Assembly (NCBI GenBank): GCA_045657645.1
Contig: JAZOTL010000014.1
Span: 1-34,845 of the forward strand
Source: Eubacteriales bacterium
GTDB taxonomy: Bacteria > Bacillota > Clostridia > Oscillospirales > CAG-272
DNA length: 34,845 bases
Direction of reading: 5' to 3'
How positions within the stretch are numbered: the first letter of the stretch is position 1; every line of letters starts with the position of its first letter. Of the stretch, positions 1 through 648 are shown in pieces. A program made the position numbers and the translations under genes. The notes below the pieces were generated by a model, which searched no databases, was not told where the DNA came from, and saw only the letters and a list, made by a program, of their open reading frames with translations.

Positions 1-107
1 CGTTCAAGTTGATTTGACAAAGAATAGTGCCCTTTTATACTTTCAGTTAGTTTTAATATCTTTATTGCAAATTCTGTAGACATATCTGCAAGTTTATTTT
101 CTGCCAT
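1..107 (-). CDS. Four-helix-bundle protein (23S rRNA IVP / Avd-like family), 5' part only; runs off the window edge
   Basis: Manual translation from the ATG at 107-105 gives MAENKLADMSTEFAIKILKLTESIKGHYSLSNQLER..., which resembles the N-terminus of that family (F-A-x-x-I, then QLxR(S)). RBS GAGGTG upstream. Not in the ORF track because it is truncated. Confidence 0.8.
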   Translation of the reverse strand, partial: MAENKLADMSTEFAIKILKLTESIKGHYSLSNQLE

Positions 108-128
108 CGAAGTCACCTCTTTAGTATA

Positions 129-157
129 ATTGTACCATAGTTTTCTATATTTCGCAA
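129..157 (-). promoter_or_regulatory. Putative sigma-A promoter of the four-helix-bundle gene
   Basis: Minus strand TTGCGA-17 bp-TACAAT with a TG extended -10. Confidence 0.55.
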
Positions 158-160
158 TGA

Positions 161-318
161 CATCGTGCAGAGCACGATGAAATCCGAACGATGTTCGGAT
201 GAAATCTGCCGTGCAGATGAAATTAAATCCGTCCTTCTCCCGACAAAGTCGGATTTCATCACAGGGTGATTTCATACCACGAAAGTGGGATTTATCCCGT
301 CCAAAAGGACGGATTTAG
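161..318. repeat. Array of 7 short hairpins joined by GATGAAAT (x3), GATTTCAT (x2) and GATTTA (x2) motifs; REP/MITE-like element or structured ncRNA
   Basis: Stems CATCGTGC/GCACGATG, ATCCGAAC/GTTCGGAT, ATCTGC/GCAGAT, CCGAC/GTCGG, ATCAC/GTGAT, CCAC/GTGG, CCGTCC/GGACGG. Long-range pair TAAATCCGTCCTT (224-236) with AAGGACGGATTTA (305-317). Confidence 0.8.
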
Positions 319-320
319 TT

Positions 321-362
321 GAAAAGAAAAGCCTTTGTCAAACGACAAAGGCATTTCTTTTC
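321..362 (-). terminator. Intrinsic terminator abutting the tRNA-His CCA end
   Basis: GCCTTTGTC-AAAC-GACAAAGGC stem flanked by GAAAAGAAA and TTTCTTTTC tracts. Confidence 0.7.
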
Positions 363-440
363 TGGGGTGAGCGATGGGAGTCGAACCCACGGCCTTCAGG
401 GCCACAACCTGACGCTCTAACCAACTGAGCTACGCCCACC
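363..440 (-). tRNA. tRNA-His(GUG)
   Basis: Cloverleaf with anticodon arm TCAGG-TT-GTG-GC-CCTGA, G-1, TTCGA T-loop and encoded CCA. Confidence 0.97.
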
Positions 441-445
441 ATATA

Positions 446-522
446 TGGCGCACCCTGGGGGATTCGAACCTCCGACCTACTGCTTAGAAGGCAGTTGCTC
501 TATCCTGCTGAGCTAAGGGTGC
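446..522 (-). tRNA. tRNA-Arg(UCU)
   Basis: Anticodon arm ACTGC-CT-TCT-AA-GCAGT, GGTTCGAATCC, encoded CCA. Confidence 0.97.
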
Positions 523-553: not shown

Positions 554-582
554 ATTATAGCACAAGTTATTTTAATTGTCAA
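554..582 (-). promoter_or_regulatory. Sigma-A promoter for tRNA-Arg/His
   Basis: Perfect TTGACA-17-TATAAT on the minus strand. Confidence 0.85.
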
Positions 583-619: not shown

Positions 620-648
620 TTGACAAAGGTTTGTTATAGGTTTATAAT
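620..648 (+). promoter_or_regulatory. Sigma-A promoter for the MATE operon
   Basis: Perfect TTGACA-17-TATAAT. Confidence 0.8.

Follow-up and report, generated by a model that had tools for sequence, protein, structure and literature searches.

What is the hairpin-rich stretch that separates a tRNA-His gene from the start of a four-helix-bundle (4HB) gene at one end of this contig, and do the two belong together? The window is the whole 34,845-nt stretch analysed here, contig JAZOTL010000014.1 (assembly GCA_045657645.1) of a Eubacteriales bacterium, and the features at issue lie within its first 522 nt (Table 1). We are highly confident that positions 155-321 constitute a diverged two-armed hairpin-and-word module, its arms being of the Gut-1 type and convergent, within a tRNA-end cassette that also comprises a terminator, a promoter and the 4HB gene. 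We hold with the same confidence that such cassettes, of about 0.6 kb, are found behind the CCA end of tRNA or tmRNA genes in Oscillospirales-type gut Clostridia. What the array does is a separate matter, on which we offer a more tentative proposal below.

Table 1. Features of the cassette and its flanks, by position in the window.
Feature	Position	Strand	Remarks
PF05635 (23S_rRNA_IVP, Avd-like) gene, first 35 codons	3..107	-	ATG at 107; remainder lost at contig end
Shine-Dalgarno GAGGTG of 4HB gene	114..119	-	sequence reading
Sigma-70-type promoter-like site, TTGCGA-17-TACAAT with TG extension	129..157 (157->129)	-	
Arm B, promoter-proximal	155..228	+	hairpins 161-179, 183-199, 205-217, with GATGAAAT after each
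Seven hairpins	161-179, 183-199, 205-217, 240-252, 258-270, 277-288, 297-312		+ coordinates
Centre	221..236		inverted copy of first word and 5' half of hairpin 1; partner 305-320
Arm A, tRNA-proximal	248..321	-	CAAC, then hairpins 312-297, 288-277, 270-258, 252-240
A-run / 19-bp-arm hairpin / T-run	321..362	both	terminator-like score on each strand
tRNA-His (GTG)	363..439	-	module starts at base following its CCA end
tRNA-Arg (TCT)	446..522	-	first gene of two-tRNA unit

The array consists of seven mini-hairpins joined by GATGAAAT and, further along, by its reverse complement. Read directly from the sequence, GATGAAAT starts at 176, 198 and 216, GATTTCAT at 252 and 268, and GATTTA at 289 and 312, in agreement with the first-pass annotation, which had three hairpins running into one word and four into either of two others. 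A repeat search of the window recovered the same word families, and both approaches bear out the earlier statement that the left and right junction motifs are reverse complements; on the minus strand, the joining words of arm A read GATAAAT/ATGAAAT. The stems are 4-8 bp long, no two of them alike, and their loops measure 3-4 nt. In the hairpin at 258-270 the stem amounts to only 3-5 bp and overlaps the adjacent words, and the arm B loops (AGA, GAT and CGT, by sequence reading) fall outside the GNA rule described below. A long-range helix, previously given as 13 bp (224-236 with 305-317), is present and slightly longer, pairing 221-236 with 305-320 (16 nt, 94% in the repeat search). The folding energy of positions 108-362, a stretch that takes in the terminator hairpin, lies far below that of shuffled sequences (z = -8.1 on the minus and -8.3 on the plus strand; 0/200 shuffles as low). 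When whole modules were folded to minimum free energy on each strand, under RNA as well as DNA parameters, the energies came out similar, with many inter-arm pairings, and did not tell the models apart.

Gut-1 is catalogued in Rfam as type Gene; sRNA, and to our knowledge it has stood there since 2010 without a context, a cultivated host or a function. Against this family (RF01706), arm A (321-248) scored 41.8 bits (E 9e-7) and arm B (155-228) 41.1 bits (E 1.4e-6), neither reaching the gathering cut-off of 50 bits; our own model R1 gave 48.0 and 41.2 bits, respectively. Both arms align over model positions 1-77, which cover three hairpins and (G)UGAAAU linkers. Variable hairpins, three in Gut-1, with UGAAAU-type linkers are common to the family and the window arms, but the Rfam model spans a single arm whereas the module in the window has two. 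The first-pass annotation had stated that a match to an already described Rfam family would count against its reading, and in part this applies, because the array halves match Gut-1, albeit with scores under the cut-off. The same genome contains 20 Gut-1 matches, eight of them above the cut-off (51.7-86.8 bits), and matches occur in 86 of 151 genomes of the family. This dispersal fits the REP-like family that had also been suggested; the accompanying idea of an association with RAYT/HUH genes did not hold, the genome's single Y1_Tnp gene (C65:581-913) having no array beside it. Gut-1 matches form convergent pairs at seven loci in this genome, and at the loci of its relatives 21/29 were convergent and none divergent. 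We conclude that Gut-1 matches scoring under the threshold are real elements where they stand behind tRNA genes in convergent pairs. Gut-1 was described as a likely noncoding RNA by Weinberg et al. (2010; PMC2864571). The main-text passages and supplement tables of that paper drawn on here (PMC2864571) contain neither convergent arm pairing nor a variable word, nor a terminator, tRNA-end position, promoter register or 4HB gene, though its other supplementary material may say more. Our literature search on Gut-1 and on PF05635/S23p proteins turned up no account of a two-armed module or of a 4HB link. What goes beyond the papers searched is the recognition of Gut-1 as one arm of a larger module that is fixed between the CCA end and terminator of a tRNA gene and a -35 box.

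The complete module is about 175 nt long; it begins after the tRNA CCA end and the terminator and stops at the -35 box of the next gene. The plus-strand terminator lies at 331-352. The flanks of the terminator hairpin recur behind other tRNAs and behind a protein gene with stems that differ in a compensated manner, 13/19 pairs having changed on both sides among 14 aligned homologous heads. Judged from these comparisons, the terminator-like hairpin at 321-362 travels with the array and not with the tRNA. At the other end, the -35 box of the promoter-like site abuts the last word of the array in the window. It starts within -2 to +3 nt of the last word in 10/18 4HB-linked arrays, and the same layout is seen in alignment A4. 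Across the 14 heads, AAGAGGTGA is kept at the Shine-Dalgarno region. These flanking features confirm the placement originally given for the array, between the tRNA terminator and the promoter of the 4HB gene. There is also a weak promoter-like site on the plus strand (101-130; 10/12) that is directed into the array.

Across loci, the 7-nt word varies and is complementary between the two arms; ATGAAAT, GTGAAAT, GTGATGC, GTTATGA and ATGATAT were all found in this one genome. Such complementarity could reflect base pairing between the arms instead of recognition by a protein. Words are spaced 13-36 nt apart with modes at 18, 20, 22, 24 and 25, and with five modes over this range they are not phased, which speaks against binding to straight B-DNA. 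A stem of at least 4 bp was present in 216/250 inter-word segments, and the stem positions comprise 1216 Watson-Crick pairs and 21 mismatches of 1237. A strand test comparing G-T with A-C had just these 21 mismatches to draw on, with arm labels unoriented in two of three sets. The 241 spacers contain 93 distinct stem strands, the linker being conserved and the stem not. Most loops have 3 nt; on one strand, loops read GNA or GNNA, and in 183/216 the closing pair is C-G.

That stems vary while pairing is kept, as claimed from the window, is upheld by two alignments. Among 14 homologous heads of the same type aligned with MAFFT, the positions of the window hairpins were paired in 82.9% of cells compared to 72.6 ± 0.8% in shuffles, and 26 pairs had changed on both sides compared to 17.3 ± 2.1, with 0/500 shuffles reaching either value. 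For 69 distinct arms, in an alignment that was fitted to the model, 95.6% of cells were paired versus 57.7% in shuffles, with 236 versus 71 double changes. In the 14 heads, 13 pairs of the long-range helix were 92.3% paired and four of these pairs had changed on both sides; across arrays, an exact complement of at least 10 nt was present in 22/48, against 73/2254 cross-pairs. The array structure is, on these alignments, under selection, and the covariation and the recurrence behind tRNAs both support the earlier proposal of a conserved structured element in a tRNA-associated module. A second long-range helix in the window (176-187/249-260) consists only of word-to-word complementarity that is invariant in the cassette type; with a covariation score of 0.083, compared to 0.080 in shuffles, it is uninformative. 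Two genome-wide scans, one for words only (28 matches versus 26 in the reversed genome) and one for hairpin chains (187 versus 82 in shuffles), were too noisy for a census.

Strong covariation is what one would expect of a structured small RNA, and Gut-1 has been placed among the likely noncoding RNAs (Weinberg et al. 2010; PMC2864571). A search of sequencing runs listed no holder recorded as RNA, the best share of words being 0.14, in contigs only, a result that is neutral as to expression. Such an RNA could arise when transcription runs past the tRNA terminator, or it could be transcribed from the opposite strand and stop at the bidirectional terminator, and it might serve as a protein sponge with hairpin-spaced single-stranded GUGAAAU linkers or as a processing platform. 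As in RNA switches, hairpin 1 and the long-range helix are mutually exclusive and both covary. Read as in Rfam, a word can wobble-pair through its last T with the first G of the word that follows (U-G 53, U-A 15), and U-G pairs are possible on the word-sense strand only; this observation fits an RNA on that strand and counts against a DNA reading. The weak plus-strand promoter-like site and the plus-strand terminator also speak for this reading. We nevertheless consider both this origin and these roles quite unlikely. Arm A starts right at the T-run of the terminator and leaves no room for a promoter, gene-less copies lack the promoter-like site, and antisense promoter-like sites are weak and present at 6/18 loci. 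Any single transcript would moreover contain the two arms in opposite orientations, one sense and one antisense. Finally, triloops dominate, which is not usual among stable RNA hairpins.

The large family PF05635 comprises open reading frames (ORFs) of rRNA intervening sequences (IVS) and relatives of Avd; we know of no role for its members outside diversity-generating retroelements (DGRs). On its own, the window's 35-aa fragment has no Pfam match. It is identical at 24/35 positions (69%) to the N-terminus of a paralogue on contig C3 of the same genome, which scores 90 bits on PF05635 (threshold 33.8 bits), and at 32/35 positions (91%) to complete genes in L135 and L139. The fold was compared using the C3 paralogue in place of the window's cut gene. 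Its structure model (pLDDT 94.3) has helices at 2-23, 28-48, 54-80 and 86-114 and a TM score of 0.89 to 2RLD and 0.79-0.83 to Avd (8UB7, 4DWL), at about 13% sequence identity to Avd. The paralogue is thus predicted to have a four-helix-bundle fold like 2RLD and Avd. The entries 2RLD, 2GSC and 4DWL have chains up to E. Locus-to-locus comparison of the ORF downstream of the 4HB gene found it unrelated each time, so there is no conserved second gene.

The association of arrays with 4HB genes, for which the first-pass annotation had argued, was substantiated by position. Among named species representatives, an array was present upstream of 65/75 4HB genes and downstream of 2/74; the corresponding figures within the family were 18/30 and 1/29, and in this genome an array precedes each of the four 4HB genes whose upstream region is visible. 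The 4HB gene thus follows the module far more often than expected by chance. Of 151 genomes, 68 have both Gut-1 and a 4HB gene, 18 Gut-1 only, 14 a 4HB gene only and 51 neither, counts in which related genomes are not independent. The word class follows the 4HB clade, a co-variation that is also expected from simple linkage within one cassette.

These associations have to be weighed against the possibility that the array is an intergenic repeat of the REP/BIME or MITE kind, selfish or structural and functionally independent of the 4HB gene, both simply favouring tRNA flanks as a landing place. Its general roles would be those of a terminator backup, an insulator against supercoiling or read-through, or an upstream promoter context. 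Gut-1 matches outnumber PF05635 matches by 705 to 199 in the 151 genomes, and 26/29 top Gut-1 loci have no adjacent 4HB gene. ATGATGT-type arrays occur in six genomes (completeness 71-98%) where a PF05635 gene was not found, so the hairpins persist without the protein. Tandem copies occur, gene-less arrays precede the promoters of unrelated genes, and tRNA flanks, being a general hot spot, also receive inserts of other kinds. We regard this repeat, and the general roles just listed, as unlikely: the fixed upstream position at 65 of 75 genes and the correspondence of word class with 4HB clade speak against it. A 4HB clade without array linkage exists (L082-L088), so that being a 4HB gene is not in itself enough to attract an array. 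No transposase linked to arrays was found, and a general host role would leave the word differences between loci of one genome unexplained.

The cassette appears in many places. One type (87% identity, about 620-630 bp) lies behind different tRNAs in four genera with unrelated flanks, and the window's type was found behind His, Ser, Gly, Val, Gln, Trp, Leu and Arg tRNAs as well as tmRNA. Its left boundary is exactly at the CCA, and one tRNA-less copy retains 9 nt of a tRNA-Ser end. Each of these findings would suit a recombination or homing site at which folded single-stranded DNA is recognised by a recombinase or retrohoming machinery acting in trans, the 4HB protein being an accessory; integron attC sites, group IIC intron targets and DGR target hairpins could serve as models. 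The DGR precedent ties Avd systems to DNA hairpins in the part of that report drawn on here (PMC3240598). This homing site and its models strike us as improbable, given that there is no linked recombinase or reverse transcriptase, a search of this genome (90.3% complete) for RVT_1 having given no match. In same-genus genomes, other arrays, other inserts or nothing lay behind tRNA-His/tRNA-Arg; for lack of synteny in the far flank, the comparison yielded no clean filled/empty pair in which both flanks are conserved, nor was a target-site duplication found. The fixed -35 box register would also be unexplained.

We therefore return to the array as a cis-acting partner of its neighbouring gene. 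As a tentative proposal, which we hold to be possible and somewhat short of probable, the array is a folded platform, probably of DNA, that is read by the Avd-like protein controlling the cassette promoter. Beyond the anatomy, conservation, covariation and linkage documented above, we infer here a DNA rather than an RNA form, protein binding and autoregulation. The array would act in cis as a folded nucleic acid, with DNA likelier than RNA. GC-rich palindromes of free sequence would fold into mini-hairpins that gather and display A/T-rich 7-nt words as far as the -35 box, typically with four words in each of the two senses. The 4HB protein of the cassette, probably a pentamer like Avd, would read these words and thereby control its own promoter, and it may also serve cassette maintenance or spread; gene-less arrays would be derived or non-autonomous copies. 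GNA/GNNA loops, mostly triloops, with a C-G closing pair, together with the DGR hairpin precedent, may be taken as a pointer to DNA. Against this main reading stand the stems, which at 4-8 bp are short to extrude as cruciforms without help, the arm B loops outside the GNA rule and the many arrays, indeed the majority, that lack a 4HB neighbour.

A broader version is conceivable, though we think it rather doubtful: non-DGR PF05635 proteins would read short words between DNA mini-hairpins in a sequence-specific manner, and array plus gene would form an autonomous selfish cassette homing to the 3' flanks of stable RNA genes. Equally doubtful is its extension, by which the cassette settles at tRNA or tmRNA genes here and inside 23S rRNA in the IVS, with gene-less Gut-1 arrays as non-autonomous derivatives. 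If true, this would amount to a REP/RAYT-like partnership that rests on folded DNA and the Avd fold, and both Gut-1 and the proteins of the IVS family would thereby acquire a function. The hairpin motif itself was already catalogued as Gut-1, and by the linkage described above the 4HB protein is its candidate partner. Because the module is tied statistically to one PF05635 clade, two orphans become one testable protein-array pair, and our comparison suggests that partnership with DNA hairpins may be general among proteins of the Avd fold. The module also explains why these metagenome-assembled genomes break at such places.

Several known systems resemble parts of this cassette. At DGR target sites, where Avd takes part, a DNA hairpin or cruciform is required whose GC stem is free in sequence and whose GRNA loop is sequence-dependent, in the part of the report drawn on here (Guo et al. 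2011, PMC3240598). The likeness to our locus lies in an Avd-fold protein combined with a DNA hairpin that has a GC-rich, free-sequence stem and a short polar G..A loop (PMC3240598, same part); the difference is that here seven to eight hairpins with repeated words lie in two opposed arms upstream of the gene. Membership in a DGR was rejected for this genome, which has no RVT_1 match, and the TR/VR repeats that belong to a DGR were not seen.

REP/BIME elements are dispersed extragenic palindromes that alternate in orientation and lie where transcription units end (3'), and in REP/RAYT systems a family-specific protein gene is flanked by its own repeats, most repeats being solitary. Here too, palindromic units are dispersed and alternate, some flanking a protein gene and most solitary, but the palindrome is conserved in REPs, whereas here the palindromes vary and the linker is conserved. 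A REP/RAYT link was rejected, the flanks of the Y1_Tnp gene (C65:581-913) scoring 0 and 4 in the array scan. IVS elements are removed from the 23S rRNA precursor. That of Coxiella, which carries an S23p ORF, is considered a selfish element of unknown mechanism in the part of the report used here (PMC4990558). It shares with our cassette a PF05635 protein on a small element in or beside a stable-RNA gene, but, by the same part of that report (PMC4990558), it lies inside helix 45 of the 23S rRNA precursor. Our cassette, placed behind a tRNA terminator, comes with a promoter of its own and an array of hairpins and words.

Integron cassettes are promoterless and share a common upstream promoter, unlike the cassettes described here, which have their own. 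The omega repressor of Inc18 plasmids with its heptad operators and the iterons of parC/ParR consist of contiguous words on B-DNA that are read by ribbon-helix-helix proteins. As in those systems, several 7-nt words, direct and inverted, stand right upstream of a strong promoter in a small, putatively mobile unit that encodes the candidate reader; here, by contrast, the words are separated by hairpins at unphased spacing, and that candidate reader is a four-helix bundle.

The identity of the element at the start of the window is secure. The first-pass annotation had proposed an Rfam search, and both arms of the array (the run of hairpins and linker motifs) match the already described Gut-1 motif, RF01706, yet each stays below the gathering score. 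The motif itself is thus known; Weinberg et al. (2010; PMC2864571) listed it as a likely noncoding RNA with 43 representatives, 0 in RefSeq 25, under 'human gut only'. The genome to which the window belongs (1.54 Mb in 154 contigs, 90% complete) holds 20 Gut-1 matches, of which 8 exceed the cut-off, and Gut-1 is present in 86 of 151 same-family genomes (above the cut-off in 74) and in 0 of 14 control genomes. In our genome, nearly every array is about 1 kb or less from a contig end (window start; contigs C106, C78, C116, C114, C34, C90, C93 and C146). The window starts inside a PF05635 four-helix-bundle (4HB, Avd-like) gene, just short of the family's conserved core, and C106 breaks off at the corresponding point in a different 4HB gene. 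Since the assembly evidently breaks at these repeats, array copy numbers are lower bounds.

Features at the start of the window
Feature	Position	Strand	Detail	Source
Gut-1 match 1 (arm A)	248-321	-	41.8 bits, E 9e-7	permissive Rfam scan (gathering score 50)
Gut-1 match 2 (arm B)	155-228	+	41.1 bits, E 1.4e-6	permissive Rfam scan (gathering score 50)
Junction motif GATGAAAT	starts 176, 198, 216			read from sequence; word families also from repeat search
Junction motif GATTTCAT	starts 252, 268			read from sequence
Junction motif GATTTA	starts 289, 312			read from sequence
Seven hairpins	161-179, 183-199, 205-217, 240-252, 258-270, 277-288, 297-312			read from sequence
Long-range helix	221-236 with 305-320		16 nt, 94%	repeat search
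Terminator-like hairpin	321-362		19-nt arms	repeat search
Terminator-like sites	331-352	both		pattern scan
tRNA-His	363-439	-		ARAGORN
tRNA-Arg	446-522	-		ARAGORN
Promoter-like site TTGCGA-17-TACAAT	157->129	-		pattern scan
SD, then ATG, 3' of promoter-like site	ATG at 107	-	open frame runs off contig	

Gut-1 is half of a larger, two-armed module. In our genome its matches form convergent pairs, a plus-strand arm followed by a minus-strand arm, at 7 loci; among 29 loci from relatives, selected by Gut-1 score alone, 21 were convergent, 8 single-armed and none divergent. A model built in this analysis found 74 arms in 44 sources, again as plus-then-minus pairs, and gave the two arms in the window scores of 48.0 and 41.2 bits. 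Typically, four 7-nt linker motifs ('words') in one sense are followed by four in the other (22/48 arrays), over a median span of 174.5 nt. The word varies within the genome (ATGAAAT in the window; elsewhere GTGAAAT, GTGATGC, GTTATGA, ATGATAT and GTGAAGT) and is complementary between the two arms at each locus, and relatives add GTGATAT, ATGATGT, ATGAAGC and AGCTAAA. In the literature searched, we did not find the two-armed module, its variable word, its register with tRNA ends and promoters or its link to PF05635 described.

The structure is under selection. The seven hairpins and both sets of junction motifs called in the first-pass annotation were recovered in the window, and the folding energy of 108-362, a stretch that takes in the terminator, lies 8 sd below shuffles on either strand. 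Over 69 distinct arms, the ten modelled pairs were intact in 95.6% of cells against 57.7 ± 1.5% in shuffles and no more than 47% in slid controls, and 236 cells had changed on both sides (71 ± 7 in shuffles); these figures are favoured by an alignment fitted to the model. A stem of at least 4 bp occurs in 216 of 250 distinct inter-word segments from 48 arrays, with 1216 Watson-Crick pairs and 21 mismatches, and in spacers alone stems of at least 5 bp are found in 44% against 2.6% of shuffles, built from 93 different stem strands. For the window's own type, we aligned 14 heads (stretches homologous to the start of the window) with MAFFT, an aligner that takes no account of structure. Pairing in the terminator and the seven hairpins of the window was kept in 82.9% of cells (72.6 ± 0.8% shuffled) with 26 pairs changed on both sides (17.3 ± 2.1), and 0 of 500 shuffles reached either value, a result favoured by taking the structure from the window row. 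The long-range helix suggested earlier also held among these heads, its 13 pairs being 92.3% paired with 4 changed on both sides, as did the competing hairpin 1, the first of arm A (94.5% paired); two mutually exclusive pairings are therefore retained. More widely, in 22/48 arrays, against 73/2254 cross-pairs, the first word plus the 5' half of hairpin 1 has an exact complement of at least 10 nt in the centre.

The module occupies a regular position between a tRNA end and a promoter. Arrays follow 7 of the 19 tRNA-cluster ends in our genome with enough downstream sequence, by scan threshold, and an eighth (C34) is followed by an array with a wide centre; in relatives, a tRNA or tmRNA lies within 300 nt of 16 of the 29 top Gut-1 loci, with the array always on its 3' side. 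Starting at the base after CCA, the order is A-run, hairpin and T-run, then CAAC, then arm A. The terminator-like hairpin belongs to the module, because its flanks are constant, its stem varies with compensation (13/19 pairs changed on both sides) and it is also present behind a protein-coding gene (C106). Of 18 4HB-linked arrays, 13 lead into a sigma-70-type site on the far side, and in 10 of the 18 the -35 box starts at -2 to +3 nt of the last word, a layout that the window shares. Separately, two perfect 12/12 sigma-70 consensus sites stand back to back at 554-582 (-) and 620-648 (+), between tRNA-Arg and a MATE-type transporter gene (684-2051); these are presumably the promoters of the tRNA operon and the transporter.

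The window's 35-codon 4HB fragment alone has no Pfam match. Its identity is 69% with the N-terminus of a paralogue on contig C3 (90 bits on PF05635) and 91% with complete genes at two relatives' loci (L135 and L139); the heads of these two loci share 81-83% identity with window 1-365. The predicted structure of the C3 paralogue is a four-helix bundle (pLDDT 94.3) that matches 2RLD (TM 0.89), followed by 2GSC and by Avd (8UB7 and 4DWL; TM about 0.8, 13% identity). The proposed association of arrays with such genes was borne out on three scales: an array lies upstream of 4/4 4HB genes with a visible upstream region in our genome; within 480 nt upstream of 18 of the 30 best PF05635 genes in the family sample (array score at least 6; 2 of the 30 with less than 120 nt available), against 1/29 downstream and 0/30 shuffled; and upstream of 65/75 against downstream of 2/74 in named species representatives (best 80 relatives, 75 assessable) labelled Acutalibacteraceae, Oscillospiraceae, Clostridia, Eubacteriales, Christensenellaceae and others. 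A same-strand tRNA or tmRNA lies within 420 nt of 35 of those 75 genes. Word classes match 4HB clades, one of which (L082-L088) is without arrays. Over 151 genomes, 68 have both Gut-1 and 4HB, 18 Gut-1 only, 14 4HB only and 51 neither, counts whose odds ratio is overstated because related genomes are not independent. One 4HB gene (G058:C7 96868-97158) sits between unusually long ATGATGT-word hairpin runs on both sides (96532-97417). Two proteins closely related to the 4HB protein (56-59% identity) occur in MAGs labelled Victivallaceae, outside Clostridia (L155 and L172; upstream array scores 4 and 0), and may reflect transfer or binning error.

We tentatively read the array as a cis-acting folded platform, probably of DNA, that is read by the cassette's Avd-like protein and so gives autoregulation. 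The platform would present its locus-specific words as far as the -35 box, the cassette's own protein would be their candidate reader, and gene-less arrays would be derived copies. A structural or selfish repeat independent of the protein is unlikely in our estimation. Against it stands the upstream bias of arrays at 4HB genes; in its favour, a 4HB gene lies at only 3/29 top Gut-1 loci, no PF05635 gene was found in 6 of the 31 genomes (of 151) that carry ATGATGT-type arrays (71-98% completeness), and gene-less arrays in our genome adjoin promoters of unrelated genes.

The cassette recurs in unrelated surroundings. In four genera, copies of the ATGATGT type share 87% identity across some 620-630 bp, beginning at the base after CCA and ending at the 4HB stop codon; their flanks are unrelated and the tRNAs differ, and one copy without a tRNA keeps 9 nt of a tRNA-Ser end. 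Depending on the genome, the window's type stands behind His, Ser, Gly, Val, Gln, Trp, Leu or Arg tRNAs or behind tmRNA. Behind tRNA-His in the same genus, G152 has a homologous array without the gene, G153 and G156 have arrays with other words, and G155 and G157 carry an insert of another kind, about 210 nt long. At the C3 tRNA-Arg flank, relatives show either the 210-nt insert, another 4HB type accompanied by a purine/pyrimidine inverted repeat, or nothing. We give little credence to a reading as a recombination or homing site. Among relatives, neither the tRNA-His nor the C3 tRNA-Arg flank yielded a clean empty site with conserved sequence on both sides.

Several other features of these flanks deserve mention. 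At L075:1-434 (G153, tRNA-Arg flank), a different PF05635 gene lies behind a long polypyrimidine/polypurine inverted repeat with no hairpin-word array. The ~210-nt insert (L061, about 330-560; L062, L073, L074, L080 and L081) ends by repeating the final 17-18 nt of the adjoining tRNA, starts with a complement to that tRNA's T arm, and reaches the gathering score of no Rfam family; although the versions behind tRNA-His and tRNA-Arg are homologous to each other, each fits its own tRNA. The ORF 3' of the 4HB gene is unrelated between loci. At 8/32 loci (L102, L106, L107, L098, L094, L100 and L087 among them) its start overlaps the 4HB stop by 4 nt (ATGA), and its SD sits within the conserved 4HB 3' end.

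Whether the module acts as DNA or RNA bears directly on the platform reading. A true sRNA seems improbable to us: it has in its favour the original authors' classification, the two conserved competing helices and a possible U-G pair at word ends on the word-sense strand only, but an independent sRNA gene is hard to reconcile with arm A beginning at the terminator's T-run, with the absence of any promoter-like site from gene-less copies and with antisense promoter-like sites that are weak and found at 6/18 loci. Triloops predominate: 85/216 loops read T-N-C on the word-sense strand (G-N-A on the other strand). G-N-N-A tetraloops also occur, and a C-G pair closes 183/216 hairpins, its polarity relative to the word being the same in the two arms. 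In DNA, C(GNA)G mini-hairpins have exceptional stability, and the triloop/GNA pattern with its C-G closing pair counts in favour of folded DNA. The spacing of the words, 13-36 nt with modes at 18 to 25, shows no phasing, which argues against reading on straight B-DNA.

Among known systems, the element is neither a diversity-generating retroelement (DGR) nor a REP/RAYT element, since no reverse transcriptase was found in our genome (90% complete) and the RAYT link suggested earlier did not hold there, no RAYT being linked to arrays; both identities were rejected. DGRs do use Avd, and Guo et al. (PMC3240598) showed that their target sites need a DNA hairpin or cruciform that forms in supercoiled DNA, with a GC stem free in sequence and a sequence-dependent GRNA loop. 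By analogy, we take this requirement as a point that would favour folded DNA in the hairpin-word array.
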